NCBI GenBank assembly: GCA_039586795.1
Contig: JBDHJS010000050.1
Location: 1-24,649 of the forward strand
Reading direction: 5' to 3'
Length of the DNA: 24,649 nucleotides
Origin: Gemmatimonadota bacterium
Lineage (GTDB): Bacteria; Gemmatimonadota; Gemmatimonadetes; Palauibacterales; KS3-K002
The notes below the pieces were generated by a model. The model was not told where the DNA came from. It made no database searches and saw only the letters and a program-made list of their open reading frames with translations. Each line of letters starts with the position of its first letter. Position 1 is the first letter of the stretch. Of the stretch, positions 1-24,436 are shown piece after piece. The translations under genes were made by a program, and so were the position numbers.

Positions 1-1698
1 GAGGCGACGAGCTTGCGCGTCGCCGAGGCAACCCAGGCCCGCTATGCGCTCATAGGTTCCGCCGTCGGCATCGGGCCTAGCGTTCGGTTGACCGCCGACG
101 TTTATGACGTGGCCACCGGCGACCGGCTGGGACAGGCCCGGGTGGAAGGTTCTCCCGACAGCGTGCTGGCACTGGTCGATCAGCTTTCTATCAGTGTCAT
201 CGGTACTATCGTGCGTAGCGGTGAAGGCGAACTGCCGTCGGTGAACCTCGCCAGCATCACCACGACATCGGTTCCGGCGCTCAAGGCGTACCTCGAGGGG
301 GAGGCGGCGTTCCGGAATGCGAACTTCGATGCCGCTGCCGAAGCTCTGGAGCGCGCGGTGGAGGCCGACTCGACGTTTGGGCTGGCGTACTATCGGTTGG
401 CGAACACATATGGGTGGAAGTACACGACGTTTCATCCGCTCACCAACCAGAACCGTGAACGCGCCTACGCCTATGCGGATCGCCTTCCCGAGCGCCAGGC
501 TCAAATGATCCGCATCGACGCCGCTAGGAATCGTCTCGAGGGCCTGAGGCTGGCCCGCGATGCCGTGCAACGCTACCCGGATGATCCGGAAGCCTGGTAC
601 GAGTTGGGTGAGCTGTACATTCATGGCGGCCTCGACGCGCCCAGTTGGGAGCAGACCGACGAAGCCTTCTCCCGCGCCGTCGAGCTCGATCCCGGCTTCG
701 CCCCCTACCGCATTCACCTCATCGATCTGGCGATGGCCGTCTACGACAGCGCCCTGCTCGCGGACCGCATCGCGGCGTATGAAGTGTTGGTTACGGGTAC
801 CAACCGACAGATCCTCCGCGGCCGCCTGGGGATAGCACTGGTCTATGGCGACTCGGCGAGTCGCGCTTGGGCGTACTCGGTCATCGATACGATGGAAAGC
901 CAGGAGATTGGCATAGCGATCGGTACGGTCGTATCTGTGGATGCCCGCGCTTGGCGGTTCGAGGACGCGTTGCTCGGCGAGTTGGCTGAGCGCGATGTGC
1001 TGCGCCCTTGGTCGGCTGCACGCTACATACAGAATAGCCTGAACCGCGGCCGGTTCAACGAGCACCTCGAGCGAATTGGTGTACCCGGTGCTCCTGCGGC
1101 CGCCCAGACCTGTTTTCTAGCTCGCGCAGACCGCAACGGGCTTCCCATCGATAGGGATCGCATCGAGGCCGCTGTGGCCGTCGCCGCCATCGACAGTACG
1201 TTACTGTTCGCCAATTTCTGCGGTGCCTGGTACGCGGCGGCAGCCGAGCGCTGGGCGGACCACGAGGCGCTGCTCGGGCGCATCGAACGTCTGGCGGACC
1301 AGGCGCTGGCCGAAGGTGACACATCGGATGCCGTGGGAGCCCGAGAACTCGCCGACGTGGCCCGCGGCTACGCCCAAATCCTGCGAGGTGAACCGGGAGG
1401 ACTGGCGCTTGTCGAACGCTTGCGCGTCGCCCAGCGTGACTCCTGGGCCCAGGAGATCGGCGATGCCTACGTCGCCGCCGATAGCCTGAGGGATGCGGTT
1501 CACTATTACCGTGGCGAGTGGGTCGATCCGCTCGTTCGCCTGAAGCTGGCCCGGGTCTACGAGCGCCTGGGTGAGACCGATAAGGCTCGCGACGCCTACA
1601 TGTATTTCGTGCAGGCCTGGACCGACGCCGACCCCGAACTCCAACCGATGGTCGAGGACGCCCGCCAGGCCATCGTGCGTCTGCGCGGCGACTTCTGA
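1..1698 (+). CDS. 5'-truncated TolB-N-like (adenylate cyclase/kinase-associated) domain plus TPR-repeat receptor protein; N-terminus lies outside the window
   Basis: Frame 1 is open from base 1 (GAG GCG ACG AGC TTG...) to TGA at 1696-1698. Motifs: VRLTADVYDVATG (TolB-N-like), TTTSVPALKAYLEGE...RAVEADSTFGLAYYRLA (TPR start), YPDDPEAWYELGELY, AVELDPGFAP, C-terminal AWTDADPELQPMVEDARQAIVRL. Clear paralog of 5430-7793. Confidence 0.85.
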   Translation, partial: EATSLRVAEATQARYALIGSAVGIGPSVRLTADVYDVATGDRLGQARVEGSPDSVLALVDQLSISVIGTIVRSGEGELPSVNLASITTTSVPALKAYLEGEAAFRNANFDAAAEALERAVEADSTFGLAYYRLANTYGWKYTTFHPLTNQNRERAYAYADRLPERQAQMIRIDAARNRLEGLRLARDAVQRYPDDPEAWYELGELYIHGGLDAPSWEQTDEAFSRAVELDPGFAPYRIHLIDLAMAVYDSALLADRIAAYEVLVTGTNRQILRGRLGIALVYGDSASRAWAYSVIDTMESQEIGIAIGTVVSVDARAWRFEDALLGELAERDVLRPWSAARYIQNSLNRGRFNEHLERIGVPGAPAAAQTCFLARADRNGLPIDRDRIEAAVAVAAIDSTLLFANFCGAWYAAAAERWADHEALLGRIERLADQALAEGDTSDAVGARELADVARGYAQILRGEPGGLALVERLRVAQRDSWAQEIGDAYVAADSLRDAVHYYRGEWVDPLVRLKLARVYERLGETDKARDAYMYFVQAWTDADPELQPMVEDARQAIVRLRGDF

Positions 1699-1713
1699 TG
1701 TGACCCTACTAAT

Positions 1714-4670: not shown

Positions 4671-4676
4671 TGATTG

Positions 4677-5264
4677 ATGGCTGAGAAAGGGAAACATGTG
4701 GACTGTCCGGTGTGCGACGGCGAGCAGATGCAGAAAATCTGTCCGTCCGAGGAGCTCGAACTGTTCCTCGACTACTGTGACCGGTGCGGCGGCATGTGGT
4801 TCGAGAGCGGGGAGGTTCGGAAGCTGCGCTACTGTCCTCCGGAGGTCCTCAGCGGACTGATCTCGATGAAGAAGCAGCTGTACGCGGTGCCCTGCAGCGA
4901 TTGCGATCAGCCGATGACCCGCAACGCCGCGGAGTGCAGCCGGTGCGGCCGTGAGAATACGATCGATTGTCCCGGCTGCGGATCACCGCTCGAGCGCGTG
5001 CGGGGCGAGCAGTTCACCGTCGACGTTTGCCGTGACTGCCGTGGCGCCTGGTTTGACAACATCGATCTTTCCGCGGTCTGGAACCTCCAGTTCCAGGAGG
5101 GCACGGACGGCTCGTCGGGGAAAGAGGAGTTCACCGAAGACACGGTACTAGCGGTCCTGCGCTCCGACAAAGAGGCGCAGCAGGAGAACAACGGCGGTGG
5201 TGACCGCAACGTGTTCGCGACGATCGCGGGGATAGTCGGCGGGATCTTTCCGGGCTCCGACTAG
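4677..5264 (+). CDS. Zinc-ribbon protein with two zf-TFIIB-like domains flanking a central ribbon
   Basis: Six CxxC motifs (CPVC, CDRC, CSDC, CSRC, CPGC, CRDC). Two copies of the zf-TFIIB-like pattern: DYCDRCGGMWFESGE and DVCRDCRGAWFDNIDL. The strong SD favours ATG 4677 over TTG 4674. Confidence 0.85.
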   Translation: MAEKGKHVDCPVCDGEQMQKICPSEELELFLDYCDRCGGMWFESGEVRKLRYCPPEVLSGLISMKKQLYAVPCSDCDQPMTRNAAECSRCGRENTIDCPGCGSPLERVRGEQFTVDVCRDCRGAWFDNIDLSAVWNLQFQEGTDGSSGKEEFTEDTVLAVLRSDKEAQQENNGGGDRNVFATIAGIVGGIFPGSD

Positions 5265-5429: not shown

Positions 5430-7793
5430 ATGTCACGCCTCAAGCAAGTCCTTTCGGTCATACACCGGCGAACCGTGTGGCAGGTTCTGCTGGTCTATAT
5501 CGGCGTCTCATGGGGCCTTCTCGAGGCCACGGGCCTGTTCATCGAGCGGTTCGGCCTGCCGGCCTGGGCCTTCCCCGCGGCGGTGCTGCTCCTCGCCATC
5601 GGCCTGGTCATCCTGCTCGCTACCGCCTGGATGCAAGTCCAGCCCGAGGCGCAGTCGCCGGACGCGCCGACGCCGTGGGAAGTCGACATCGTGAATCTCA
5701 AGGAGTCGGTGACGGGCGGCCGCTTGCCCCATCTGACCTGGGCGCGGGCGATCCTCGGCGGCGTGTTCGCCTTCTCGCTGCTCTTCGGGTTCGCGGGGCT
5801 CTACGTCCTGTTGAGCGGACCGCCACGCGCGGTAACGGCGAACGTCGCCGGCGACGCCGAAGCGGCGCCCGGCATTGCCGTGCTGCCGTTCAGCGTGGTG
5901 GGTAACCCCGAGCTCGAGCTGTGGCGCGAAGGGATGGTCACGCTGCTCTCCCGGAACCTCGACGGCGCGGCGGGCCTGCGGACCATAGACCCCCGCGGGC
6001 TGATGAGCCGCTGGAACGCCGATATCGGAGAGGGCCGCGACGCGCCCGACCGCGAGGCGGCGCTCGCCGTGGCGCGTCACACGGGTGCCAGCTACGCCAT
6101 CATGGGTGACGCCGTCGACTTGGGCGGCGGCGTGCGCGTGAGCAGCGAGGTTTACGACCTGGCTTCCGGGGATCTGCTGGGCCGCGTGCAGGTGGAGGGC
6201 ACGACCGACAGCGTCCTCGCGCTCGTCGACCAGCTGAGCATCCAGCTGCTGAGCAGCGGCCTGGTGCGAGAAGGAGCCGAACTCCCGACGCTGAATGTCG
6301 CAGCGGTGACCACGACCTCGCTCGAGGCGCTCAAGTTCTATCTGCAGGGCGAGCAACAGATGCGCCGCGGCGACTGGCCGGGAGCCGCGGACGACTTCCT
6401 CCAAGCCGTCGAGATCGACTCGACATTTGCCCTGGCGGATTACCAGCTTTCATTGGCGCTGGGTTGGTCGGAGGCGTTCTCGGAGCGCGTGCTCGAACAC
6501 AGCCGCCGCGCGGCTCGACATAGCGAGAGCCTTCCCGAACGGATCGTACTTCGTATTCAAGGCAACGCTGAGATGGATGCGCAGCTACCCGATGCCATCC
6601 GCACGCTGGAGGTGCTGACCCAGCGCTACCCGGACGACGTTGAAGCGTGGTATCGGTTGGGCGAAGCCTACGCCCACTTGGGCGCCCGTGCCCTGACCCA
6701 TCCGTCAAAGATTGTCGAGGCTCTGAACCGGACGGTCGAGTTGGATCCGGGCTACGCTTCAGCATACATCCACCTCATCGACCTGGCGTTCTTCTACCAG
6801 GACACCGCCGAAGCGCGGCGACTGGTCGAGCGCTATCGAGAGGTGGGTCGGGATGACCCGCGCAGTACCGCCTACTCCGTCGTATATGACTACCTGTGGG
6901 CCGATAGCGCGGGCCGGGAACGTGCGCGGGCAGCATTGCCTGCGATCGACGGCGAAGTGCTGAGTGACGTGCTCAACCAATCTCTGGAGTACGTGCACGA
7001 TCTCTACGACTCGACCGCAGAACTGGCCGGCTCCCTCCTCGTGGAGGATCGCTCGTCCAGCGAACGCGCCCTCGGATACAACTCCCTCGGCTATATCAGT
7101 GCCGGCCGTGGCCGCCTCGATGAGTCGGTACGAGCATTCGCGCAGGAGGCCGTTCTGCGGGGTAACCGGGGCGAAGTGGCGGCTGCTTTGCGCGACCTCG
7201 ACTTCTACAGTCTCGACATGAGGGACGTGGAAGCAGCTCGAAGTGCCGCCGAGCTCCTGCGGCAGGACCCCAGTCGTCTCGCACGCTTTCGTCTCGGCGT
7301 ACTGGCCGCGAACGAAGGTGACTACGAAGACGTCGAGTACCAGATTGCGGCGCTTGACTCCATCGCCGATCGTCAGGATGCTGCCGGCAGCTCGTTTGGG
7401 GCGGCCAATTCCCGGTCGCTGGCGCAGGCGCTTCGTTGCTATGCTGCGTTGCGTGCCGGCGACCTGGAGTCGGCACTGGCCGAATTCGAGAAGCCGATGC
7501 CACGCCTTCCCGACAGCGCGCACCGGGTACTGCGCTATGCGCTCGGCAAGCTGTACCTGGAACGCGGCGATCTTGCTCAAGCGGAGCGGTACTTCTCCAG
7601 CTTTTACTATTCGGTGGCTCAGGCTCCCGCCGAGTATCTCTTGGGCGAGATCTACGAGCGTATGGGCGATGAAGAGCGTGCCCGCATTCACTACGCGCAC
7701 TTCGTGCGCTGGTGGGAAGACTGCGATCCGGCGCTCCGTCCATGGTGGGAACGCGGGCGCCAGGCGTTGGAGCGTTTGACCGGCGAAGTCTGA
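5430..7793 (+). CDS. Membrane-anchored (about 3 TM) TolB-N-like plus TPR-repeat protein with no catalytic domain
   Basis: GGGAG SD at 5420-5424. N-terminal module IHRRTVWQVLLVYIGVSW...GLPAW...LAIGLVILLATAW and a third hydrophobic helix AILGGVFAFSLLFGFAGLYVLL. TolB-N-like IAVLPFSV. TPRs AVEIDSTFALA, YPDDVEAWYRLGEAY, VELDPGYASA. C-terminal WWEDCDPALRPW. Confidence 0.9.
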   Translation: MSRLKQVLSVIHRRTVWQVLLVYIGVSWGLLEATGLFIERFGLPAWAFPAAVLLLAIGLVILLATAWMQVQPEAQSPDAPTPWEVDIVNLKESVTGGRLPHLTWARAILGGVFAFSLLFGFAGLYVLLSGPPRAVTANVAGDAEAAPGIAVLPFSVVGNPELELWREGMVTLLSRNLDGAAGLRTIDPRGLMSRWNADIGEGRDAPDREAALAVARHTGASYAIMGDAVDLGGGVRVSSEVYDLASGDLLGRVQVEGTTDSVLALVDQLSIQLLSSGLVREGAELPTLNVAAVTTTSLEALKFYLQGEQQMRRGDWPGAADDFLQAVEIDSTFALADYQLSLALGWSEAFSERVLEHSRRAARHSESLPERIVLRIQGNAEMDAQLPDAIRTLEVLTQRYPDDVEAWYRLGEAYAHLGARALTHPSKIVEALNRTVELDPGYASAYIHLIDLAFFYQDTAEARRLVERYREVGRDDPRSTAYSVVYDYLWADSAGRERARAALPAIDGEVLSDVLNQSLEYVHDLYDSTAELAGSLLVEDRSSSERALGYNSLGYISAGRGRLDESVRAFAQEAVLRGNRGEVAAALRDLDFYSLDMRDVEAARSAAELLRQDPSRLARFRLGVLAANEGDYEDVEYQIAALDSIADRQDAAGSSFGAANSRSLAQALRCYAALRAGDLESALAEFEKPMPRLPDSAHRVLRYALGKLYLERGDLAQAERYFSSFYYSVAQAPAEYLLGEIYERMGDEERARIHYAHFVRWWEDCDPALRPWWERGRQALERLTGEV

Positions 7794-11386: not shown

Positions 11387-14300
11387 TCAACTCCGCAAAG
11401 CTGCGGCATACGCCGACGGCGACATTCCGTATCGCACCCGAAACCGCCGACAGAAGTGTGACACGCTTTTGAACCCGACCCCGTAAGCAATCTCGCTCAC
11501 CGTCCCGGCCTTGGCGATGAGCAGATCGGCGCCCCGTTCCAACCTGAACTGCTGGATCATCTCGCTGGGCGATTGGTCGGTCAGCTCCTGCAACCGCCGG
11601 TAGAGCTGGGATCGGCTCTGCGAGACGGCGGTGGCCAGCGCGTCGACGCTGAAGTCGCTGTCCGCCACGTGCGCTTCGAGGACGGCCCGCACACTCTCCA
11701 GAAAGGTCTCATCACGCGAGGGCAAGTCGACGGGCCCGGGGCGGAGCTCGGTTCGCTGCTGAAACCGCTCGCGCAAACGCTGGCGCGAGGCGATGAGGTT
11801 GCCGACCCGGGCTACCAGCTCGATGGCGTCGAACGGCTTCGTCAGATAATCGTCTGCGCCGCCGGACAAACCCTCGATCTTGTGTTCCTGGTCCGCCCGA
11901 GCAGTCAGCAGGATGAGTGGCACGAACTCCAGCTCGGGGTCGGATTTCACCGCCTGACAAAGCGCGTGGCCATCGAGGCCCGGCATCATGATGTCGCTAA
12001 CGATGCAGTCGGGAACGACCTGGCGCGCCAGGCTTAGCCCGTCGTCGCCTGCCGCCGCCTGGACGACACGGTATGAGGCGGTCTCCAGGTGCTTGACGAC
12101 GTAGGCGCGAAGCTCGGCGTTGTCGTCAATCAGCAAGACGGTGGGAGAATCGAGAGCGCCGTTCTCGACCTGCTCGTTGGCCGGATGCTCCATCCCAATC
12201 TCGAGCTCGGCCATGGAGCTGAACTCGTACTCCGTTTCGGGGATGGCCGCCTCCGTCGGCTCGGCCAGCTGCGAGGCATCGAAGTGGGCCTTCCCCAGCG
12301 GCAGCGTCACGGTCAAGGTCGCGCCGAACCCCTCCTCGCTCTCGGCCTCGATGCGACCGCCGTGCAGCTCCAGCAGTTCGCGGGCCAGCGATAGCCCCAG
12401 CCCGGTGCCGTCTTGCGTATCGTCGGCCCCGGTCGCCCGGTGGAAGCGCTCGAAGATCTGGGTCAGATCCTCGGCCGGAATCCCAGGACCGCTGTCCTTC
12501 ACCTGCACGGTCACGTACCCCTCGGGCATATCGGTAAAGTCGGGGTGCCCGGGCACCGGGATGGTCGGCCGAACCGAGACGCGAACGGCTCCACCCTCGG
12601 GCGTGTACTTGAGCGCGTTCCCCACCAGGTTCGTGAACACCTTCTCCAGCAGATCGGGGTCGAAGTAGACCTCGCACGCTTCACGCGGTTCGTCGAGTCG
12701 GACCCCGATGCGTTTGCGCTCGGCCAGCGGCGAAAGGGCGAGCAGCAAACCCCTAAGGAACCCGGTGATGTCGCCGGGCTCCGCCTGGATGTGAACGCGG
12801 TTCGCTTCGAGCCGCGCGATGTCGAGCAGCTGGTTGACCAGGTTCAGCAAGCGCTGCGCGTTTCGCTGTGCCAGCGAGAGCTCCCGATCGATCTCGGGCG
12901 TCACCTCGCCGTGCAAACCGGCACGTACGTCGTCCAGCGGCCCGATCATCAGTGTGAGCGGCGTTCGGAACTCGTGTGAGACGTTGGCGAAGAAGTGCGA
13001 CTTGGCGGCGTCCAGCTCTTTTAACTGCGTAGACTGAGCTTCTATCGTCGCGGTACGCTCGGCAACGCGCCGCTCCAGTTGGCGCTCGCGTCGCTTATGG
13101 CGCAGATCGAGGACGCGAAGCGCGACCAGCCCAACCGCGAGAAAGACGATGGCGAACAACGCCCTGAACCACATTGTTTCGTAGAAATACGGCGCCACGA
13201 TAAGCGCCAGCTCAGAATCTGCGTCGTACCAGGTTCCGTCTCCCGTCGTGGCGCGTACCCGGAACGAGTAGCTTCCCGGCGGCACGTTGGTGAAGAAGGC
13301 GGTACGGCGATTCCCAGCTTCGACCCAATCCTGCTGGAAACCGTCGAGTCGATACTGGAAGCGCAGGTTGTCCGGTGCCAGAAAGCTGAGGGCCGTGTAG
13401 GAGATTTCGAGATCCCGTTGACGCGGTTCGAGTTCTAGCTGGGTGTAGCTCGGTTGACCGGTGAGCATCAAGCGCGTCTCTTCGGCCCTGACCTCCTCTA
13501 CCCTCACCGGTATCGGCTCGGCGGAGCGATGGGTCGCGGCCGGGTCAACGACCGCCGCGCCCGCCTGCATCGCGAACCAAAGACGACCATCGCTTGCCAC
13601 GATGGCGGGTGATTGCACGCCACCGTTCGCCTCCCGATTTCGCAGGCCGTCCCGCTCCGTATATGAGATCGAGTGGATGCCGCTCGCCCGACCCGCCGCG
13701 AAATCCTCCAGGTCAGAGCGCAGCACCCAGAAGATCCCTCGGTTACTGCTCATCCAGTAACGGCCGGTGCCGTCGTCGAGGATCGCGTGCACGCCGTCGG
13801 CGTACAGCCCGTCGCGTCGTCGGATCACGGTTATCGTCGCTTCCGACAACTCCGTCACCGGCGCGCCCGCGGCGTCAACCAAATGCACCCGGTTGAGACC
13901 CCGGTCTTCTGTCCCGATCCACATCACGCCGGCTTCGTCTTCATGGATCGAGCGCACCAGGTCGCTGGACAGCCCGTCAGTGGCCGTGAGGCTCTCGAAG
14001 CGTCCGTCCTGGTAGCGCGCCACGCCGCCACCGTTGGTCCCGAACCATAGGGACCCGTCCCGCGCTTCGTGAATCACTCGCACAAAGTCGTGAGGCAGTC
14101 CGCTCTCAGAGGTGAAGTGCTCCACGACGCCTTCCGAGTTGCGGTACAGTCCGCGGTCGGTCCCGAACCACATCGCCCCCGACGGATCCTGGTAGATCGC
14201 TTTCACCGTGTGACCGCTGAGAAACGGGATGTAACGCGCGCAGCGTAGATCCTCCACCTCGCAGGCCCCGTAACTGAGCCTCCCAGCCCATAGCCGACCT

Positions 14301-15571
14301 TCCCGATCTTCGAAGATCGTCTGGGGCAGGCCGATCCAGTCGTTCTCCTTGAGGCGGAAGCGGTTCTGCTCGTACACCACGAGTCCGCTGACCAGCGAGC
14401 CCATCCAGATCCGCCCCTGCGAGTCCTCGATGATCGGATAGACGTTGGCAGCGGCGCCTTCCTCGGCCCCGTACACCTGAAATAGCGCCGGCTTGAGTCG
14501 GTGCAGCCCATCGGCGGCGATCCATAGACTGCCCTCGTGATCGAACGCGATGGACGCGATCCGGAAGCTGCCCTCGAATACCAGCTCTTCATTTCGATAG
14601 AGCCGTTCTTGGATCGCGAGCCAGCGATCGCCCCGCTGATCGACGACGAGCGAGACCGGCCCGGAGCTCGTCACGTTGATGTCCGGTCGAAGGACCCGCA
14701 GTTCGCTGTCGAGGAGCGTGAACAAGCCCTCGTCACTTACCACGAGCAACGAATCGGCGCCGAGAGGCAGCATCGAGCGCACGAAGATCTGGTCGGCTCC
14801 TGGAGGGAGCAGACTCGTCACGGACCCGCCCCGGTAGGCGAGTATGGAGACGCCCGTGCCGATGAAGACTGTGCCATCCGTCGCTTCGGCGAACGTCGAC
14901 GCCAGCGAGCTCTTCGGGCCGTCCCCCTGTGCCATCACGCTGCTGACGTTGCCTCCCTGCCAGCGCTGAGCCCCCCAGCCGTCCGTGCCGATCCACACTG
15001 CGCCGCCGGCGTCCAAGAACAGCTCCGTAACCGGAAGGCGCAGCGATTCATCCCCTAAGTGCTCCAGCAGCTCGTCCCGCATCACGAAGACGCCCCGGTT
15101 GGTGCGTACCCACAGGGTCCCCTCAGAGTCGAACTGGATCGCCCCGATCGCCGTTCCTCGCTGTTCTTCGCCCAGTCCGTAGACTGCGAATTCGCCGTCC
15201 ACCCACCGCACGACATAGTCGAACTCCGCGGCCGCCCAAACGCTGCCATCCGGGCCAGCGATAATCGAAACGAATCGATTGGTGGGTAGCTCTGGATGGC
15301 TGGATGTGTTGAAGACGGTGAAGCGGGCGCCGTCGAAGCGAATCAACCCATCAAAGCTCGCCAACCACAGGTAACCGTCCCGCGGCTGGATCACGCCGTT
15401 CAGGTGACTGAGGGGGAGTCCGTCCTCGATCGTCCACACCTCGTGGACGAGACCGCTCGCCTCCGCTAGGCGGGCGGCGTGGGGATCGGGGGCCTGCGGC
15501 CAGGCCATACCAGGGGCGCTGACCAAGGCCACGAGCAGCAAGGCGGGCCGAAAGGCTGACGGTCGGGGCAT
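11387..15571 (-). CDS. Hybrid two-component system (HTCS): Reg_prop beta-propellers, Y_Y_Y, TM, HisKA, HATPase, REC, AraC HTH
   Basis: Signal peptide. Repeats DGYLWLAS..GLIRFDG, IIEDSQGRIWMG, IYQDPSGAMWFGT, IHEARDGSLWFGT. Y_Y_Y FQYRLDGF..DW...AFFTNVPPGSYSFRVRA. TM after PYFYETMWF. H-box NVSHEFRTPLT, N-box NLVGNALKYT, DSGPGI, GTGLGL. REC SDIMMP...YLTKPF. AraC VSEIAYGVGFKSVSHFCRRFR..YGMSPS. Confidence 0.95.
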   Translation of the reverse strand: MPRPSAFRPALLLVALVSAPGMAWPQAPDPHAARLAEASGLVHEVWTIEDGLPLSHLNGVIQPRDGYLWLASFDGLIRFDGARFTVFNTSSHPELPTNRFVSIIAGPDGSVWAAAEFDYVVRWVDGEFAVYGLGEEQRGTAIGAIQFDSEGTLWVRTNRGVFVMRDELLEHLGDESLRLPVTELFLDAGGAVWIGTDGWGAQRWQGGNVSSVMAQGDGPKSSLASTFAEATDGTVFIGTGVSILAYRGGSVTSLLPPGADQIFVRSMLPLGADSLLVVSDEGLFTLLDSELRVLRPDINVTSSGPVSLVVDQRGDRWLAIQERLYRNEELVFEGSFRIASIAFDHEGSLWIAADGLHRLKPALFQVYGAEEGAAANVYPIIEDSQGRIWMGSLVSGLVVYEQNRFRLKENDWIGLPQTIFEDREGRLWAGRLSYGACEVEDLRCARYIPFLSGHTVKAIYQDPSGAMWFGTDRGLYRNSEGVVEHFTSESGLPHDFVRVIHEARDGSLWFGTNGGGVARYQDGRFESLTATDGLSSDLVRSIHEDEAGVMWIGTEDRGLNRVHLVDAAGAPVTELSEATITVIRRRDGLYADGVHAILDDGTGRYWMSSNRGIFWVLRSDLEDFAAGRASGIHSISYTERDGLRNREANGGVQSPAIVASDGRLWFAMQAGAAVVDPAATHRSAEPIPVRVEEVRAEETRLMLTGQPSYTQLELEPRQRDLEISYTALSFLAPDNLRFQYRLDGFQQDWVEAGNRRTAFFTNVPPGSYSFRVRATTGDGTWYDADSELALIVAPYFYETMWFRALFAIVFLAVGLVALRVLDLRHKRRERQLERRVAERTATIEAQSTQLKELDAAKSHFFANVSHEFRTPLTLMIGPLDDVRAGLHGEVTPEIDRELSLAQRNAQRLLNLVNQLLDIARLEANRVHIQAEPGDITGFLRGLLLALSPLAERKRIGVRLDEPREACEVYFDPDLLEKVFTNLVGNALKYTPEGGAVRVSVRPTIPVPGHPDFTDMPEGYVTVQVKDSGPGIPAEDLTQIFERFHRATGADDTQDGTGLGLSLARELLELHGGRIEAESEEGFGATLTVTLPLGKAHFDASQLAEPTEAAIPETEYEFSSMAELEIGMEHPANEQVENGALDSPTVLLIDDNAELRAYVVKHLETASYRVVQAAAGDDGLSLARQVVPDCIVSDIMMPGLDGHALCQAVKSDPELEFVPLILLTARADQEHKIEGLSGGADDYLTKPFDAIELVARVGNLIASRQRLRERFQQRTELRPGPVDLPSRDETFLESVRAVLEAHVADSDFSVDALATAVSQSRSQLYRRLQELTDQSPSEMIQQFRLERGADLLIAKAGTVSEIAYGVGFKSVSHFCRRFRVRYGMSPSAYAAALRS

Positions 15572-15584: not shown

Positions 15585-15712
15585 GACTGTCCCTCGTTTC
15601 CCGCACGTCACGGAGGTTGCAAATCGTGGTCTCCTCGTGCCAGGAGCCCCGTGGGACAGGGAACGCAACGTCGCTGCAAGCCTTCAGCCCAACCGCTCGC
15701 CAGATTCCGCGT

Positions 15713-16138
15713 ATGGGAACAGGCCTTGTGGTGCTCATCGCGGAGAACGATCAGGATATGCGCGGCTACGTCCGGCGCTGTATCGAGAACCACAACGTGC
15801 AAATCGCGGAGTTCATCGAGGTTCGCGACGGGCGCGAAGCGCTCGACATCGCCCGCGGGAGACACATCGACCTGCTGATCAGCGACGGCGCGATGCCGCG
15901 ACTCGACGGCTTCGCGCTCTGCAGGGCCGTTCATCGCGAGGCGGCCGACGGCCACCCGAGAGTGCTCGTGATCACCGGCCAGTTCGACCGCAAGGATGCG
16001 GAGCGCCAAGCGCGTGCCGCGGGTGCGGACGGCCTGCTGCTGAAACCCTTCAACGCGCGGACTCTGTGCGAAAAGATCGACGAAGTCCTGAGCTTCCGTT
16101 CACCACCGAGTAACCTTAGCCCCAACCAAGGAGGTTAG
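15713..16138 (+). CDS. Stand-alone (CheY-like) response regulator receiver protein
   Basis: VLIAEND acidic pocket, phospho-acceptor LLISDGAMP, VITG, LLKPF. The REC fold begins just after ATG 15713; the 32 upstream codons from the track start at 15617 look non-coding. Confidence 0.88.
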   Translation: MGTGLVVLIAENDQDMRGYVRRCIENHNVQIAEFIEVRDGREALDIARGRHIDLLISDGAMPRLDGFALCRAVHREAADGHPRVLVITGQFDRKDAERQARAAGADGLLLKPFNARTLCEKIDEVLSFRSPPSNLSPNQGG

Positions 16139-16139: not shown

Positions 16140-16832
16140 ATGTCTGAGCAAACCTATAACGACCTTTTACCGAACCCAGGGTTCGAAGTCGAGAAGGGAA
16201 AGACGGCGCTTGTCGTCACCGACCCGCAACGCGACTTCCTCTCCGAGGACGGCGTCGTATGGGAAGTCGTGGGACCGAGCGTCAAAGAGAACGACACGGT
16301 CGAACACCTGCGGCAGCTTCTCTCGGCCGCCCACGACGCCGGCATCCCCGTCTTCATCTCTCCCCACTACTACTACCCGCAAGACAAGAAGTGGAACTTC
16401 GGCGGGGCGCTGGAGAAGATGATGCACGCGGTTGGGATGTTCGACCGCGAGGGTGCGCTGACCACGAATGGCTTCAGTGGCTCGGGCGCCGACTGGCACG
16501 AGCCGCTCAAGTCGCTCATCGACCGAGACGACGTCATCGTAACGAGCCCGCACAAAGTATATGGACCCGAATCAAACGACCTAGTGCTCCAGCTCCGCAA
16601 GCGCGGGATCGACAAAGTCATCCTCGCCGGGATGTCCGCCAACCTGTGCGTCGAGGCGCACCTCCGCGAGCTGACCGAGCAGGGATTCGAGGTGTCCGTG
16701 GTGAAGGACGCCACGGCGGGGGCCAAGCTCCCGGGTGGCGACTTCTACCAGGCGGCGTTGCTGAACTTCCGCATGATCGCCAGCGCCGTCATGTCGACGG
16801 ACGAAGCGATCAGCGCGATGAACGGATCCTAG
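16140..16832 (+). CDS. Isochorismatase / cysteine hydrolase family protein
   Basis: TALVVTDPQRDF (catalytic Asp), PHKVY (Lys), GMSANLCVEAH (Cys), VVKDATA. AAGGAGG SD inside the end of the REC gene; 1-bp gap after the REC stop. Confidence 0.92.
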   Translation: MSEQTYNDLLPNPGFEVEKGKTALVVTDPQRDFLSEDGVVWEVVGPSVKENDTVEHLRQLLSAAHDAGIPVFISPHYYYPQDKKWNFGGALEKMMHAVGMFDREGALTTNGFSGSGADWHEPLKSLIDRDDVIVTSPHKVYGPESNDLVLQLRKRGIDKVILAGMSANLCVEAHLRELTEQGFEVSVVKDATAGAKLPGGDFYQAALLNFRMIASAVMSTDEAISAMNGS

Positions 16833-16879: not shown

Positions 16880-19063
16880 ATGAGCAAGAACGCAGGTTCC
16901 CGGCCAGGGCGCTCACCGGCGGCGGAGACGCTGGTCGGTGGCGACGAGTTGGCGCGAGTGCTGCTGGACTCGACGGGCGAGGGGATCTACGGAGTCGATC
17001 TCGATGGCAATTGCACATTTGCCAACCCAGCGTGCCTGAGGCTTGTCGGCTATGAGAGTGATGCTGAGCTCCTGGGGCGCAACATGCACGAGGTCGTGCA
17101 TCACACGCGCCGCAACGGAGAGCCTTACCCAGTGGAAGAGTGCCACATCTACCGCGCGTTCCGCGAGGGTGAAGGGACGCACGTGGATGACGAAGTCATG
17201 TTTCGCAAGGACGGTTCGAGCTTTGACGCCGAATACTGGTCCTACCCGATCGAACAGGACGGCGAGCAGGTCGGGTGCGTCGTCACCTTCGCCGACATCA
17301 CAGAGCGGCGACGCAGCGAGCAGCTGCTTGCGGAACAAACCGCCCGGCTAGCCGAACTGGCCCGCTTTCCCGAGATGAATCCCGGCCCCGTGCTTCGCCT
17401 CGACCTCGAAGGCAACGTGCTCATGGCCAACGAGGCGGCGCGCGGAGAGTTCGGCCTCGAGCTGGTGGGCCGTTGCTGGAAAGACATCTGCCCGGGTATC
17501 GACGATGACCTCTGGCGCCAGATCCTGGATGCCAGCGGGCCGTTTACCATCGAGCGGCGCATTGGAGAAAAGGATTGCGTCTTCACCCACCGGCATGATT
17601 TCGAGAGCGAACTCGTTTTCGTGTTCGGCGCGAACATCACGGAGCAGAAGCAGGCCCAGCGCGCCCTACGGCAGGCGGACGAACAGGTTCGGTTGCTTCT
17701 GAACTCCACGGGTGAAGGTATCTACGGGGTCGACATGGACGGCAACTGCACGTTCGCCAACCCCGCGTGCGCCAGGCTACTCGGCTTCGCTGACGTCGAT
17801 GAGCTGCTGGGAAAGCACATGCACAACCTGGTGCACCACACGCGACCCAACGGAGAACACTACCCGGTGGAGGAATGCCGCATCTACCAGGCGTTTAGGG
17901 AGCATGAAGGAACGCACGTCGATGACGAGGTGATGTTTTGCGCCGACGGAAAGCCGTTTCCGGCGGAATATTGGTCGTACCCGGTGGAGCGGGACGGCGA
18001 GTTGGTGGGCTGCGTGGTCACCTTCGTCGACATCAGTGATCGGCGTCGCGTAGAGGACGAGCTGCGCCAGCGCGAGAAGATGGCCGCGCTGGGCAAGCTC
18101 TCAGCCGGTCTCGCCCACGAGCTGAACAACCCGGCGGCGGCTGGAGGGCGCGCCGCCGGCCAGCTGATCGAGATGCTGGACCAGTTCCTATCCGCCACGG
18201 TCCATCTGGCGCGGGCCGACATCGGGTCCGACGCGTGGAGGCAGCTGAGGGATCGATACGTCGAGTTCGGCCGTCGCTCGGATGGCGCGCTGGGACTCTC
18301 GGCGCTGGAGGCCAGCGACCGCGAGGACGAGCTGATGAGTTGGCTCGAGCGACATGGCGTCGAAGAGCCCTGGGACATTGCATCGACCCTGGTCAGTGCC
18401 AGCGTCGGGCCTGAAGATCTGGATGCGATTGCCGCCGCCGTGCCGGCGGAGCGACTGAGCGCGGCCATCGATTGGCTGGACAAGGCCCTCGATGCCCAGG
18501 AGCTGGCCGGTACGGTCGTTCGCAGCTCGCGGACGATGTCGGAGTTGGTGGACGCGGTGAAGTCCTATTCCCACATGGATCGGGCGCCGATGGACTACGT
18601 CGATGTCCACGAGGGGATCGAAGACACGATCAAGATCCTCGGACACAAGCTGAAGAGCGGTATCGAGCTGAACCGGGAGTACGATCGCGAGCTGCCCCGC
18701 GTTCTCGCCGCCGGCAGCGATCTCAATCAGGTCTGGACCAACCTGATCGATAACGCCATCGGCGCCATCGATGGTGGGGGAAAGATCACAGTTCGCACCT
18801 CTGGAGATGGCGAGCACATCACCGTCGAGGTCATCGACGATGGGCCGGGGATACCGAAAGAGATACGGCACCGCATCTTCGAGCCCTTCTACACCACGAA
18901 GGGTGTCGGGCAGGGGACCGGGCTGGGGTTGGACATCGTTCGCCGCATCGTGATGGGGCGCTGCGGCGGTGCCATCGATTTCGACTCGCGCCCCGGCGAA
19001 ACCTCGTTTCGGGTTCGGCTGCTGGCCGAAGGAGCCGAAACCTGCGAGGAGCCGTCAGTCTAG
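16880..19063 (+). CDS. Cytoplasmic sensor histidine kinase with three PAS domains
   Basis: PAS1 and PAS3 (EGIYGVD.DGNCTFANPAC), divergent PAS2 (NPGPVLRLDLEGNVLMANEAA). H-box LAHELNNP, N-box QVWTNLIDNA, DDGPGI, IFEPFYTTK, GTGLGL. No TM segment. Confidence 0.95.
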   Translation: MSKNAGSRPGRSPAAETLVGGDELARVLLDSTGEGIYGVDLDGNCTFANPACLRLVGYESDAELLGRNMHEVVHHTRRNGEPYPVEECHIYRAFREGEGTHVDDEVMFRKDGSSFDAEYWSYPIEQDGEQVGCVVTFADITERRRSEQLLAEQTARLAELARFPEMNPGPVLRLDLEGNVLMANEAARGEFGLELVGRCWKDICPGIDDDLWRQILDASGPFTIERRIGEKDCVFTHRHDFESELVFVFGANITEQKQAQRALRQADEQVRLLLNSTGEGIYGVDMDGNCTFANPACARLLGFADVDELLGKHMHNLVHHTRPNGEHYPVEECRIYQAFREHEGTHVDDEVMFCADGKPFPAEYWSYPVERDGELVGCVVTFVDISDRRRVEDELRQREKMAALGKLSAGLAHELNNPAAAGGRAAGQLIEMLDQFLSATVHLARADIGSDAWRQLRDRYVEFGRRSDGALGLSALEASDREDELMSWLERHGVEEPWDIASTLVSASVGPEDLDAIAAAVPAERLSAAIDWLDKALDAQELAGTVVRSSRTMSELVDAVKSYSHMDRAPMDYVDVHEGIEDTIKILGHKLKSGIELNREYDRELPRVLAAGSDLNQVWTNLIDNAIGAIDGGGKITVRTSGDGEHITVEVIDDGPGIPKEIRHRIFEPFYTTKGVGQGTGLGLDIVRRIVMGRCGGAIDFDSRPGETSFRVRLLAEGAETCEEPSV
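16955..18055 (+). repeat. Intragenic duplication: two 122-codon PAS copies at 16955-17320 and 17690-18055
   Basis: Ungapped hand alignment gives 91/122 identical residues (about 75%); copies are 735 bp apart. Confidence 0.9.
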
Positions 19064-19096: not shown

Positions 19097-20758
19097 ATGA
19101 GTAAGCCGGCAATACTGACATTGGACGACGACGTCGATGTGCTTCGGGCCGTCGAGCGCGACCTCAGACGCGAGTACGGATCCGATTATCGGGTTGCCCG
19201 GGCCGATTCCGGCGACGCGGCGTTGCAGTTGCTAGAAGAGCTGAAGCGGCGCGGCGAGCCGTCCGCCCTCATGCTGGTCGATCAGCGTATGCCATCGATG
19301 AGCGGCGTCGAGTTCTTGCAGAAGGCGGTCGACATATATCCCGAGGCAAAGCGCGTGCTCCTCACGGCCTACGCCGACACGGACGCGGCGATCAAGGCGA
19401 TCAACCAGGTACACATCGACCACTACCTGCTGAAGCCGTGGGATCCGCCGGAAGAGAAGCTCTACCCGGTTCTCACCGACCTACTCGATGATTGGCGATC
19501 GGCTTACCGACCGCCGTTCGAGGGCATCCGCGTCGTCGGCAACCAGTGGGCCCCCGACTCTCATCGGGTCAAGGAGTTCCTCGCCCGCAACAACATCCCG
19601 TACCTGTGGATGGACCCCGAGGTGAGCAAAGAAGCCAGGCGCCTCATCGAGGTCTCGGGTAAGAAGAAGCTGGAGTTGCCCTGCCTCTTCTTCACGGACG
19701 GGTCGATTCTGGAGAGGCCGGACAACCGCGTGATCGCCGAACGTAGCGGGCTCAAGACCAGCGCCGAGATGCCCTTCTACGATCTCATTGTGGTGGGAGC
19801 TGGTCCGGCCGGGCTGGCGGCGGCGGTCTACGGCGCTTCCGAGGGGATGCGCACCCTGGTGGTCGAAAGGCACGCCCCGGGCGGTCAGGCCGGGATGAGC
19901 TCGCGGATCGAGAATTACCTCGGCTTCCCGGGAGGCGTATCAGGCGGTGAGCTGGCGCGGCGTGCCGTGAGCCAGGCCCGGCGCTTCGGCGTTGAGATCC
20001 TGGCGGCGCAGGAGGCCGTCCGGCTCTGCGCCGACGGGCCATCGAAGACAGTGACGCTTGGGGATGGCAGCGAGCTGAAGTGCCGAGCACTGCTCATCGC
20101 GACGGGCGTTTCGTATCGCCAGCTGAAGGCCGAAGGGATCGAGCGCTTGACCGGAGCCGGGGTCTACTACGGCGCGGCGATGACCGAAGGTGAGTCGGTC
20201 CGCAACCAGGATGTATACATCGTCGGGGGCGCGAACTCGGCGGGACAGGCGGCGATGTATTTCTCGGGATTCGCCCGGTCCGTCACTTTGCTGGTGCGCG
20301 GCGAGTCGCTGTCGAGTGGTATGTCCCAGTATCTGATCGACCAGATTGATGGGGTCGACAACATTCGAGTCAGCACCGGGACGGAAGTATCGGAGGTCCA
20401 GGGCGCGGAGCGCCTCGAGAGGGTCGTCATAGCTGGAGATGGCGGCCAAACCCAAGAGACGGTCCCGGCCGCCGCGCTCTTCATTTTCATCGGGGCGGTT
20501 CCGCACACGGATTGGCTGGGTGATCTCGTCGCCCGTGACGAGCACGGCTTCATCCTCTCGGGGATCGATGCGGTCGGCAACGGTGCCGCGGCGCCGTTCC
20601 AGCTACAGGGTCGGTCTCCGTTCCTGCTCGAGACCAGCCTGCCGGGCGTGTTCGCGGCGGGTGACGTTCGCCACGGGTCGGTCAAGCGGGTTGCGTCTTC
20701 GGTGGGCGAGGGATCGATGGCCGTGACGTACGTGCACCGCTATCTCAGCAGCGTGTGA
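19097..20758 (+). CDS. REC / glutaredoxin-like / thioredoxin-reductase-like FAD-dependent oxidoreductase fusion, lacking CxxC motifs
   Basis: REC: TLDDD, LVDQRMP, LLTAY, YLLKPW. FAD motif VVGAGPAGLAAA, GGQAG.SSRIENYLGFP, LLIATG, NAD(P)H motif IVGGANSAGQAA, ETSLPGVFAAGDV. GGGAG SD upstream. Confidence 0.92.
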   Translation: MSKPAILTLDDDVDVLRAVERDLRREYGSDYRVARADSGDAALQLLEELKRRGEPSALMLVDQRMPSMSGVEFLQKAVDIYPEAKRVLLTAYADTDAAIKAINQVHIDHYLLKPWDPPEEKLYPVLTDLLDDWRSAYRPPFEGIRVVGNQWAPDSHRVKEFLARNNIPYLWMDPEVSKEARRLIEVSGKKKLELPCLFFTDGSILERPDNRVIAERSGLKTSAEMPFYDLIVVGAGPAGLAAAVYGASEGMRTLVVERHAPGGQAGMSSRIENYLGFPGGVSGGELARRAVSQARRFGVEILAAQEAVRLCADGPSKTVTLGDGSELKCRALLIATGVSYRQLKAEGIERLTGAGVYYGAAMTEGESVRNQDVYIVGGANSAGQAAMYFSGFARSVTLLVRGESLSSGMSQYLIDQIDGVDNIRVSTGTEVSEVQGAERLERVVIAGDGGQTQETVPAAALFIFIGAVPHTDWLGDLVARDEHGFILSGIDAVGNGAAAPFQLQGRSPFLLETSLPGVFAAGDVRHGSVKRVASSVGEGSMAVTYVHRYLSSV

Positions 20759-21511: not shown

Positions 21512-21788
21512 GGTAGCCTCCAGGTTCGGAGAAAGGCAGCGGACTGTCCGCCGCCAGGTCCAGTCATCTCGTTTCTCCGGGACCTGGACTTCGAATAGCC
21601 CCAGGTGATCAAGGGGGAATCAAGTGTAGTAGGAGGAATTAGCGTCGTGGCAGGGAGCCTCACTCTACTTTCATCAGCTTTGCTGCGGCGATATGGCGAG
21701 TATACGCTCTCGTTGCCCTATTCTTGGCCGCGTACCATCTTGTATCAGTTCCGATTATAGAGCGGAGACGATCCTCTCGGGACGCATC

Positions 21789-24436
21789 ATGTCGGAGAAC
21801 CTCGAGCGGCTGAAGGATGTCCTGGCGGACCGCTACGCCGTCGAGCGTGAGCTGGGCCGCGGAGGGATGGCGACCGTCTACCTCGCCTACGAGCCCAAGC
21901 ACGACCGCAAAGTCGCCATAAAGGTCCTCAATCCCGACGTCGCTTCGGCGGTGGGCGCCGGGCGGTTCCTGCAAGAGATCCAGATCGAGGCGAATCTCCA
22001 GCACCCCAACATTCTGCCGCTGCACGATTCGGGAGAGTCCGACGGTGTCCTCTACTACGTCATGCCGTACGTGGAGGGTGAGTCGCTGCGCGACCGGCTG
22101 CTGCGTGAGAAAGAGCTGCCCCTCGAAGACGCGCTACGCATCACGCGTGAAGTCGGCGACGCGTTAAGCTACGCCCATGACCACGGCGTGATCCATCGCG
22201 ACATAAAGCCGGAGAACATCATGCTCACCGGCGACCACGCGGTGCTCGCCGATTTCGGCATCGCCCGGGCGATCGACACGGCAGGCGGCGAGCGCGTCAC
22301 CAAGAGCGGGCACTTCGTGGGGACGCCCATGTACATGAGCCCGGAGCAGGCGGCGGGCGGCTCGGATCTCGATGCGCGAAGCGACGCCTACTCGCTGGCC
22401 TGCGTGCTGTTCGAGATGATCTGCGGCGAACCGCCGTTCGGCGGGCGTACGGTGCAGGCGGTGTTGGCGAAGCACATGTTGGAACCCGCGCCTTCGATGG
22501 AGACGCTTTGTCCATCGATTCCCCATCACGTGGCCAAGGCGGTGGAGCGCGGGCTGTCGAAGACGCCTGCCGAGCGCTTCAGCACGACAGCGGAGTTCGT
22601 CGCCGCGCTGGAAGGGGCCGAGAGACCCGACGGCTGGGTCGACATCCTGCGTGAGCTCGGCGCTCGGAACATCTGGCACATCGGAGCCCTCTACCTGGTG
22701 CTCGGCTTCATCGCCATTGAGTTGGCACGGATGCCGATCCAGGAGCGGGCGTTGCCCACCTGGGTATTCGCGGCGCTGTTCGCGCTAGTAGCGATCGGCT
22801 TCCCGATCACGCTGGCGTTGGCCTGGGCGCAAGGTAAGCCGCGGGGGCAGATACGACCGCGCTGGGTTCGTCACGTGCGCGCCGGCTATTCACTCGCGTT
22901 TCTCGGAACGGTGGTCATTGGGCTGCTCGCCGTCCGGGCAGCGCTCACGCGTACGCAACAAGAGATTCAGGCTGAGCCCATCGAGGCTGCATCGACAACG
23001 TTGGAACAAACGCGCATCGCGGTGCTGCCGTTCGAAGACTTGAGCGAGGAGCAGGCGTTGCGCGGACTATGCGCCGGTTTCACCCGGACGCTCATCTCGG
23101 AGCTGACGCAGATCGATCCACTCGACGTCATTTCTTACAACGGAGTGAAGCACTACCGGAACTCAGACGTCCCGCTCGACAGCATCGCGCAGAGGCTACG
23201 CGTTGGAACCATCGTCAGCGCGAGCGTCCAGGAATCGCAGGGCGAGCTTCGCGTCACCGTTGAGCTCACCGATGCGGCATCCATGTCAAATCTCGCCACC
23301 AGCACCATCGGCCAGCCCCGTACCGAGACCTTCGCGCTGCAAGCCGACATTGTAAAGGAGGTTAGTCGGTTCTTGCGCGAGCAGCTGGGTGTGGAGATTC
23401 GGCGTCAGGAGTGGCTGGCCGAGACCGCTAGTCGGGAAGCGTGGGAGCTGGTCCAGGAGGCGGAGGTGGTTAAGGAGAGCGTCGGTCCGATTGGGGCCGT
23501 GGAGGATGCGGAGTGGGCCGCCGAACAGCTGCAGACCGCGGACTCGTTGCTAGCGCTGGCGGAATCGCTTGACCCCACCTGGCTCGAGCCGGTCTTACAG
23601 CGCGGTTGGATTGCAGCCGACCAAGCGCGGCTACGTGAAGCATCGCCGGGCGCTCACGAGCAGAACTTCATTCAGCTGGGGCTTGCGCTTTCGGAGCGGG
23701 CGCTGGCGCTCGAACCAGAGGACGCGGGAGCGTTGGAGTTGCAGGGTGTGTTGTCGTTCAACGCATGGGGTGCCGCCCGCGAGGGGGAGGACGCCGCCGC
23801 CCATATCAACAACGCCGAGGAGGCGTCGCTCGCCGCGGTCGAGCGCGATCCTTCCAAGGCCATGGCGTGGGTTACGCTCAGCGAGATCTATCGCGTCAAC
23901 GGTCTGCTGGGTTCGGCATTCCGAGCGGCGCGCAGCGCCCTGGAAGCGGATGCGTTCCTGGAAGTTGAGTCCATCGTCTACTTCTCTATTTGCCAGTACT
24001 ACTGGGAGAACGAGGAGCTCGACAGGGCGATGCCGTGCTTCGCCGAGGGCCGCCAACGTTTCCCGGATGATCCTGCCTACGTGGCTCCTGAGCTGACGTA
24101 CCTGGCGTTCGCCGACGGTCCGGAGCCAGACGTCGAGGAGGCGTGGCAGATAAATGATACGCTCGAGGGGCTGATGGGGTCGGCCTACCCCGGCTTTCGG
24201 CCGAGCTTCTTGATGATGATCGCCGCCGTACTGGCCCGGGCCGGCGAGGCGGACAGCGCTCACGCCCTCATGCGCAGGCAAACGTGCACCTGAACCTTGG
24301 CGAGGCGGACTTGGCTCTTGCGTCACTGAATCAGTTCCTCGAGGCGGTACCGGATCGCAAAGCATATATCGCCACCGACTATTGGTGGCGGCCACTCCGC
24401 GATGACCCTCGCTTCAAGGCGATGGTTGACGAGTAG
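21789..24436 (+). pseudogene. Ser/Thr kinase with 3-TM module, TolB-N-like domain and TPRs; frameshifted near the 3' end (main frame stops at 24293, true C-terminus in the -1 frame 24278-24436)
   Basis: Kinase motifs LGRGGMATVY, VAIKVL, HRDIKPEN, DFG, GTPMYMSPEQ. ATG 21789 (MSENLERL) aligns with the start of the 1714 kinase. IAVLPFEDLS and TPRs follow. After ...HALMRR the frame ends QTCT*, while the -1 frame reads ANVHLNLGEADLALASLNQFLEAVPDRKAYIATDYWWRPLRDDPRFKAMVDE*. Could be a real lesion or an assembly error. Confidence 0.85.

Follow-up and report, generated by a model that had tools for sequence, protein, structure and literature searches.

A cysteine-free glutaredoxin-thioredoxin reductase module under likely two-component control in a Gemmatimonadota bacterium

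We analysed a 24,649-nucleotide stretch of DNA from a Gemmatimonadota bacterium (assembly GCA_039586795.1, contig JBDHJS010000050.1), referred to throughout as the window. At positions 19097..20758 it encodes a 553-residue response regulator, here called P0001, in which a receiver is followed by a glutaredoxin (Grx)/NrdH-like domain and a flavoprotein of the thioredoxin reductase (TrxR) fold. All four catalytic cysteines of an intact relative in the same genome have been lost from P0001, which is therefore likely to be an NAD(P)H flavin enzyme gated by a kinase and not, as database labels often have it, a classical thioredoxin reductase. It is a response regulator of the catalogued TrxB class, and is not TrxB, a YumC-type ferredoxin-NADP reductase (FNR), AhpF or YpdA. 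Its features are as follows.

19097..20758, + strand: response regulator P0001, 553 residues, receiver, Grx/NrdH-like domain and TrxR-fold flavoprotein, without CxxC (open reading frame, Pfam and model)
19097..19504, + strand: receiver domain, residues 1-136 (Pfam PF00072, E 2.5e-15)
19124-19129, + strand: receiver acidic pair D10/D11 (alignment)
19280-19282, + strand: receiver phospho-acceptor D62 (alignment)
19364-19366, + strand: receiver T90
19433-19435, + strand: receiver K113
19523..19762, + strand: NrdH/mycoredoxin-like domain, residues 143-222 (profile, Pfam and structure matches)
19547-19561, + strand: WAPDS, former WCxxC of the middle domain
19679-19681, + strand: Pro195 of the middle domain, kept
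19778..20755, + strand: low-Mr TrxR-fold flavoprotein module, residues 228-553
19796-19813, + strand: GAGPAG, flavin adenine dinucleotide (FAD) motif
20159..20200, + strand: former redox centre, GVYYGAAMTEGESV (alignment to solved TrxRs and the intact Grx-TrxR)
20225-20248, + strand: GGANSAGQ, NAD(P)H motif
20297-20299, + strand: R401
20321-20335, + strand: MSxYL family motif
ending at 20665, + strand: GD523
20687-20689, + strand: R531

Both redox dithiols are lost

The original prediction, made from the letters alone, held that three isolated cysteines remain, that WAPDS (19547-19561) stands where WCPDC is expected and that the TrxR active site reads GVYYGAAMTEG (20159-20191). Translation confirms each of these points, the cysteines being residues 196, 311 and 329. 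Alignment with solved TrxRs puts G359 at the first cysteine position, T363, after a one-residue insertion, at the second and E364 at the following Asp. V368 occupies the cysteine position of an EAxxC motif carried by most other family members. The loss is neither chance nor an assembly error, because W151 and YYGAA are invariant in 81/81 sequences (80 genome loci plus the query) and DNA contigs from two independent-looking runs cover parts of the gene with no indel. A degenerate or mis-assembled gene was rejected for these reasons and because homologs share the 553-residue length and the motifs, and the G+C content at third codon positions (0.81) is like that of the neighbouring genes. RNA runs gave sparse short contigs, none of good length covering the regulator gene. 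A promoter scan returned 0 sigma-70 sites, with terminators at chance level.

A search with the Grx-TrxR module gave 3,159 clusters (50% identity) under 1e-30, a count that includes intact Grx-TrxR fusions and some TrxB. Figures for clusters below refer to the best 150 of these 3,159 representatives over P0001 residues 140-553, with domains called by locally built profiles. Both CxxC motifs are absent in 149/150 clusters, the exception being an intact Grx-TrxR. The best cysteine column is filled in at most 54/148 clusters, and 15/149 modules contain no cysteine at all. We rejected the EAxxC cysteine as a replacement redox residue; it is found in 69/81 locus sequences, yet in 0/120 of the closest P0001 homologs, with Val in the P0001 clade and L/V/M/F/Y elsewhere across clusters. 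C329 and C196 were likewise rejected, neither being conserved across clusters, as was a CxxC at P0001 columns 426/429, which is confined to some cyanobacteria. This lineage-specific CxxC occurs in ~27 Nostoc-group members (L027-L067), on an NADPH-domain strand away from the ancestral site.

Other hallmarks of thioredoxin reductase are missing too. The best NCBIfam score of P0001, to TIGR01292 (TrxR), is 218.6 bits against a cut-off of 343.45. The HRRxxxR motif that binds the 2'-phosphate in TrxB (PMC8564101) reads VRGESLS, leaving one Arg, and GAG and ES stand in place of the thioredoxin-binding GR/KG and FF motifs defined in PMC9025218. Many homologs nonetheless carry the JGI name 'thioredoxin reductase (NADPH)', and the warning in the original prediction that a trxB annotation would mislead is borne out by these names and by the TIGR01292 score.

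The cofactor and receiver sites are complete in P0001, again as predicted. Its FAD and NAD(P)H motifs are intact, GGANSA having Ala at the third position of GxGxxA, and D10, D11, D62, T90 and K113 make up a full phospho-site in the alignment. D62, T90 and K113 are kept in 80/81 sequences, and the receiver site residues overall in 79-80/81. Across clusters, the retained residues are GxGPxG (148/148), G377 (148/148), N380 (147/148), Q384 (146/148), R401 (142/148), D523 (147/148) and R531 (146/148); the family-specific residues Q384, M409, S410, Y412 and R531 are near-invariant. Pfam recognises Response_reg (6-118) and Pyr_redox_2 (228-539). A model built from a 30-sequence alignment (pLDDT 77.8, pTM 0.54) matches TrxR and AhpF structures, with a TM-score of 0.87, by target length, to the TrxR structure 7jyp.

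A glutaredoxin-fold middle domain and an intact sister

The middle domain (~143-222) has the NrdH/mycoredoxin/glutaredoxin fold, as had been proposed from the sequence. A profile of 47 family middle domains matches mycoredoxin-1 (Mrx1) of M. tuberculosis (2lqo) at E 2.9e-10, and 44/47 of these domains match Pfam Glutaredoxin at E<=0.1; the domain of P0001 itself reaches only E 0.0072, short of the cut-off. Its model superposes on E. coli NrdH (1h75) with Z 11.2 and a root-mean-square deviation of 2.1 A over 76 residues, and Foldseek agrees. The objection that this region might not be thioredoxin-fold is thus removed. It is a single 80-residue unit and not the double thioredoxin fold of AhpF. 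CxxC/CxxS is absent (WAPDS), cysteine being found at the first position in 9/149 clusters and at the second in 9/149, and the substrate-loop proline P195 is kept in 81/81 sequences and 128/136 clusters.

The source genome (G000) is 97.8% complete and holds five TrxR-fold genes among 7 matches, one of them a canonical TrxB (contig C27), and three thioredoxin-like proteins. Those related to P0001 or its kinase are listed here.

G000:C91:62756-64003 (L088:2757-4004), - strand: intact Grx-TrxR fusion, 415 residues, WCPDC and CATC (alignment)
G000:C47:38072-41189: second receiver copy, 81% identical to P0001, overlapping a kinase with a cyclic nucleoside monophosphate (cNMP)-binding domain
G000:C86:18836-20743 (L090): orphan paralog, degenerate receiver, 42% identity, no adjoining kinase
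G000:C39:717-2213: orphan cNMP-domain kinase of the same subfamily as the regulator-paired kinases

Over P0001 residues 144-553 the C91 fusion is 42% identical, and 38% when only the glutaredoxin domain is compared. WAPDS falls under WCPDC, so that the motif expected by the original prediction is literally present in the same genome, and YYGAAMTEG falls under HFCATCDG. WCPDC and CAxCD are each kept in 120/120 homologs of this fusion family (P0121). The intact fusion is colinear with the last 410 residues of P0001 and has the same VRG NAD(P)H strand and the same C-terminal insertion; it differs in keeping both cysteine motifs and in having no receiver. We found no description of a bacterial fusion of this kind in an open-access literature search. 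By its motifs, the C91 protein would be a self-contained disulfide reductase of a large family; one homolog (P0207, 699 residues) adds a PF02627 domain, and on a Thermomicrobiales contig an intact fusion (L002:5386-6750) lies tail-to-tail with a receiver-type gene.

The flavoprotein module of P0001 is 41-44% identical to 7 Grx-TrxR fusions, 27-34% to TrxB, NTRC and AhpF, 25-27% to three YpdA proteins and 24-25% to two FNR-like proteins. Among the groups compared, a C-terminal insertion of ~19 residues is common to P0001 and the fusions only. In a 40-row tree, the cysteine-free proteins fall on one side of a branch with support of 100/100 and the fusions are adjacent at 88/94 (not starred); a 55-row quick tree gave 97 for the grouping of cysteine-free proteins next to the fusions. 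Rows had been removed before the careful tree (6, then 15) for a shorter run with long branches out. In an approximately unbiased (AU) test, a tree forcing the family together with the FNR-like rows, of which it held only 2, was not rejected (p 0.225). Because the AU test left the FNR grouping standing, the case for this ancestry is built mostly on architecture, identity and the shared insertion. On these grounds the intact Grx-TrxR lineage is likely the sister of the P0001 family.

Family and known systems

The first homology search with P0001 gave at least 8000 candidates. Close homologs that bear a taxon name are Gemmatimonadota, and the 80 loci carry titles from Cyanobacteria, Chloroflexota, Acidobacteriota, Actinomycetota, Armatimonadota, Nitrospirota and Bacteroidota. 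The inputs attached to the module are a receiver in 63/150 clusters, a cNMP-binding domain in 50/150 and neither in 36/150 (many of them fragments), with the intact fusion making up 1/150.

Receivers on a TrxR fold, likewise with a histidine kinase partner, form the TrxB class of P2CS/P2RP and of the Galperin censuses. PMC5847659 lists a 'Mycobacterium-like' combination of receiver with thioredoxin reductase, and PMC9739842 gives S. coelicolor SCO7298 as a TrxB-class regulator (P2CS) with SCO7297 as its kinase. Polysulfide induces SCO7298, even when adpA is mutated, as does acid shock, and these accounts treat the protein as a thioredoxin reductase (PMC9952706, PMC2631018). The accessible text of the class censuses makes no mention of a glutaredoxin domain or of missing cysteines, and SCO7298 is likened to P0001 here by its listing in that class. 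In our search of the open-access literature, outside which most subscription papers fall, no receiver-type member had been characterised, and nowhere was the class said to lack its cysteines. Compared with the usual TrxB-class system, the kinase of P0001 has PAS rather than cNMP-binding sensing, and P0001 lacks the EAxxC cysteine. To the class the present locus adds a four-cysteine sister in the same genome, a variant with a PAS kinase and a cysteine hydrolase, the loss of the last semi-conserved cysteine and a link to ATII-TrxR.

Proteins named 'thioredoxin-disulfide reductase' at NCBI that carry a cNMP-binding domain have the same cysteine-free Grx-TrxR module and form one clade with P0001 (100/100). 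They are one-component proteins in which the cNMP-binding domain replaces the receiver. C. metallidurans WP_011519316.1, for example, is 43% identical over P0001 residues 146-553 and has no CxxC. Unlike P0001, the cNMP branch mostly keeps EAxxC (33/50 clusters; 120/120 Burkholderiales-type homologs).

ATII-TrxR, studied as a thioredoxin reductase in PMC6544261, is by its architecture and cysteine numbering probably a member of this branch. It has 552 residues, with a cNMP domain at 13-146 and a TrxB domain at 234-522, and the text names cysteine pairs 206/223 and 376/467, and names no CxxC. In the 17 cNMP-branch representatives in which both landmarks were located, the EAxxC cysteine lies 133-135 residues past the FAD motif, compared with 125/128 for a true CxxC; Cys376 fits the former spacing and not the CxxC position. 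Three cysteines of WP_011519316.1 stand at a constant offset from ATII-TrxR 206, 223 and 376. This chromid homolog differs from WP_011516654.1, the named best hit of ATII-TrxR. The native enzyme was reported to hold 1.87 FAD and to reduce DTNB (5,5'-dithiobis-(2-nitrobenzoic acid)) with a kcat of 8.96 s-1 with NADPH and 1.695 s-1 with NADH; a thioredoxin-dependent insulin assay at 340 nm with its own thioredoxin gave Km 1.03 uM and kcat 28.4 s-1 (PMC6544261).

TrxB and AhpF share the fold and the FAD/NAD(P)H motifs of P0001, and AhpF also has a thioredoxin-fold N-terminal unit; P0001 differs in having neither CxxC nor thioredoxin-binding motifs and scores 161.5 against a cut-off of 502.9 for TIGR03140. 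YumC-type FNRs and IruO/YcgT resemble it in having a TrxR fold without CxxC, a likeness drawn in the original prediction. The analogy did not hold. P0001 is 24-25% identical to these proteins and lacks both FNR hallmarks, namely a three-residue GAF hinge and a C-terminal loop over the FAD (PMC8564101); YumC chains extend 16-18 residues past the aligned end, P0001 3-4, ending with the last helix. YpdA/Bdr, a TrxR-like NADPH flavoenzyme for which bacillithiol disulfide reduction at the flavin with no cysteine nearby has been proposed (bioRxiv 2020.12.02.408641), offers a possible mechanistic model by analogy. It is a separate lineage and a tetramer, with no regulatory or glutaredoxin domain, and P0001 scores 52.7 against 339.9 for TIGR04018.

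Kinase pairing

The regulator gene follows its putative cognate kinase in a co-directional run. The genes upstream of it are as follows.

16880..19063, + strand: soluble histidine kinase, 727 residues, inferred cognate, ending 33 bp before the regulator; PAS-A 26-149, divergent PAS-like middle ~160-262, PAS-C 268-390, H-box His413, HATPase
16140..16832, + strand: isochorismatase-family cysteine hydrolase (Pfam PF00857; nearest solved 3kl2, 6xix)
15617..16138, + strand: stand-alone receiver protein, likely start near 15692, first gene of the run
11387..15571, - strand: divergent hybrid sensor with beta-propeller/Y_Y_Y, kinase, receiver and AraC

The kinase has no hydrophobic segment (maximum hydropathy 0.99). 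A kinase of the same subfamily is present in 66/80 loci, and in 48/58 of those with more than 2.5 kb on both sides. This pairing makes receiver gating of the flavoenzyme by phosphorylation likely, as the original prediction had supposed. Of 24 kinase sensors scanned, 18 have a cNMP-binding domain and 6 PAS. We also fetched 19 regions from relatives, which are kin and not independent, and some contigs may repeat loci among the 80; 11 hold close orthologs, 10 behind a PAS kinase and 1 behind a cNMP kinase. With three kinases and two regulators of these types in the source genome (C47, C39 and the window), cross-talk is possible.

In the window kinase (16940-18060), PAS-A and PAS-C are near-identical and bear a His/Cys-rich motif, MH..VHH..YP..EC..Y..TH, present in 26-27/28 such domains examined. 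From its residues it may be a metal or heme site. No close solved structure was found for these domains, the nearest matching weakly (at best E 4e-5), a search of the Atlas turned up no more than generic PAS clusters, and we found no description of the motif in the accessible text of PMC10468136.

The cysteine hydrolase gene lies upstream in 9/10 PAS-kinase loci of relatives, the remaining contig ending there, and its Asp/Lys/Cys motifs are kept in 8/8 checked. It is duplicated in some relatives (L124, L129, L006, L071), where the second copy apparently has an N-terminal leader. The stand-alone receiver gene is patchy in relatives, and the hybrid sensor is linked in several of them.

By a simple motif scan (not a family scan) of open reading frames, ferredoxins and flavodoxins do not recur as neighbours across the 80 loci, and a WCxxC-type frame is nearby in only 1/80. 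One query for adenylate cyclase found a neighbour in only 2/80. A small UBP-type zinc finger occurs in 13/80 loci (L001-L080); it is not in the window and is in no PAS-kinase locus, save as a CPA2/TrkA antiporter fusion beside the regulator in L006. These zinc-finger proteins travel with cNMP-domain versions (also L189:3950-4216) and one stands alone at G000:C66:20151-20429. On the Rhodococcus plasmid L189, the genes accompanying a cNMP-type member are clpB, trxA, that of the zinc finger and DUF1931, which together make up a heat/protein-quality cluster.

Elsewhere in the window, 4674-5264 encodes a 196-residue protein with two TFIIB-type zinc ribbons and a double zinc ribbon, and 13-4389, 5430-7793 and 21693-24293 hold a Ser/Thr kinase and TolB/TPR-like cluster typical of the lineage (named by motif recognition).

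Proposed function

We tentatively favour, at somewhat less than an even chance, an NAD(P)H flavoenzyme under kinase control whose reduced flavin would pass electrons directly to an acceptor from outside, probably a small disulfide-type (S-S) compound. The module is taken as the output because its inputs, receiver or cNMP-binding domain together with varying kinase sensors, exchange before a fixed module, and as a live flavoenzyme because both nucleotide sites are strictly kept and a probable relative turns over. With no thiol on the enzyme, the acceptor must reach the flavin itself. A small S-S acceptor is favoured because the ancestor would be a disulfide reductase, the one relative with measurements reduces DTNB directly, Bdr offers a precedent and the FNR hallmarks are missing. 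In the proposed cycle, the adjoining PAS kinase would phosphorylate D62 of a receiver resting on the flavoprotein dimer, and phosphorylation would free or lock rotation of the NAD(P)H domain; the general TrxR rotation cycle is described in PMC8564101. FAD would then be reduced by NAD(P)H, with NADPH somewhat preferred. The space of the lost cysteines (G359, T363, E364), together with invariant Y358, Q384, M409-S410-x-Y412 and R531, would form a flavin-face pocket where, as in YpdA/Bdr, reduction of the acceptor needs no dithiol on the enzyme. The cysteine-less glutaredoxin domain might serve for docking or coupling.

Complex prediction hints that the receiver may sit on the module dimer. Docking scored 0.39 (best control 0.00), between two parts that are halves of one natural chain, and runs agree in at least 86% of contacts with partner pLDDT of at least 81. 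The mark was reached by 116/157 solved and 2/215 mismatched pairs, yet passes at <=0.60 comprise 18/157 solved pairs and both mismatches, and are more often wrong than right.

Several observations weigh against this proposal. The complete phospho-site is kept in only 5/50 full-length receiver-type cluster representatives, although divergent rows may be misaligned, and the receiver would therefore be no phospho-switch in much of the family. By diversity, pseudo-receiver forms may be the commoner state; receivers are degenerate in 45/50 divergent receiver-type clusters, and the C86 paralog is likewise degenerate. With a pTM of 0.54, the full-length model leaves the relative placement of the domains loose. 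Catalysis may be altered, since HRRxxxR is down to one Arg and Gln replaces the Glu of the NADPH-domain motif. DTNB accepts electrons promiscuously. The choice of a small S-S compound is weak because host thiols differ (the source genome has BshC and no glutathione synthetase match, and the family also occurs in cyanobacteria and actinobacteria) and because the gene does not replace YpdA, with which close orthologs co-occur in 3/11 genomes. A role as YpdA stand-in was not supported, BshC being present in 38/41 related genomes and YpdA in 19/41, with several having neither. ATII-TrxR, itself placed in the family by inference, keeps an EAxxC cysteine absent from P0001, and by the text its assays were aerobic, with no cysteine mutants described (PMC6544261). 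The open-access literature search found no assay of any receiver-type member.

The same gating could serve another acceptor, making P0001 a phosphorylation-controlled diaphorase, ferredoxin/flavodoxin reductase, quinone reductase or NAD(P)H oxidase. Cysteine-free TrxR-fold proteins do include FNRs and IruO (PMC8564101), weak flavodoxin-type activity and a reaction with O2 are known even for TrxR and Bdr (PMC8564101; bioRxiv 2020.12.02.408641), the AU test left a tree with YumC-type proteins standing, and the relative's reduced flavin could be reducing DTNB in a side reaction. However, the GAF hinge and C-terminal FAD loop are both missing, identity to a YumC-type protein is only 24% (against 41-44% to the Grx-TrxR fusions) and no ferredoxin or flavodoxin neighbour recurs in the motif scan of the 80 loci; we regard this reading as unlikely. 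The original prediction preferred this reading and gave an NAD(P)H sensor as its other option, which our results make less likely. As a sensor, the pseudo-enzyme would read the NAD(P)H/NAD(P)+ state and control the receiver as a phosphate sink or allosteric partner of kinases or regulators. The lost catalytic cysteines, the single Arg left from HRRxxxR, the E-to-Q change in GGANSAGQ, the many degenerate receivers, that of the orphan C86 paralog included, and an operon with no DNA-binding output all suit such a role, but the 50 cNMP-fused forms offer no other candidate output domain and a probable member turns over NAD(P)H several times per second (PMC6544261), which leaves it quite unlikely.

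The original prediction also stated that P0001 is not a disulfide reductase. This was too strong, as cysteine-free disulfide reduction has been proposed for YpdA/Bdr and the probable relative ATII-TrxR was reported to reduce DTNB and thioredoxin (PMC6544261). The case for an unconventional route by which P0001 still reduces a protein disulfide, in thioredoxin or elsewhere, would draw on the insulin assay of ATII-TrxR with its own thioredoxin (PMC6544261) and on trxA, which in Rhodococcus lies two genes upstream of a member of the cNMP type. Yet both CxxC motifs are gone from P0001, as are the EAxxC cysteine (V368; 0/120 closest homologs) and the GR/KG and FF motifs; its genome already has canonical TrxB and the intact fusion, and a WCxxC-type frame is near only 1/80 loci. 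We hold this route to be very improbable.

Significance

Response regulators with an enzymatic redox output are rare, and the TrxB class has stood in censuses for years without a function. Members of its family widely go under the name of thioredoxin reductase, and some have been investigated as such (trxB3 in S. coelicolor; ATII-TrxR). The source genome provides a clean test set, with a four-cysteine Grx-TrxR, receiver versions with PAS and cNMP kinases, a degenerate-receiver orphan and canonical TrxB. P0001 does not have the one cysteine able to explain the activity of ATII-TrxR, and therefore any disulfide reduction by it would be a second cysteine-free origin besides Bdr. Beyond P0001 itself, we put forward as a rather doubtful but wider proposal that the family constitutes cysteine-free, signal-gated disulfide/persulfide reductases across several phyla. 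A glutaredoxin-TrxR fusion would have gained a cNMP-binding domain or receiver and then discarded its four catalytic cysteines, giving a two-component switch of the thiol/sulfane-sulfur pool that acts without transcription and that in the present marine Gemmatimonadota would be rewired to a His/Cys-rich PAS sensor, which may bind metal or heme.

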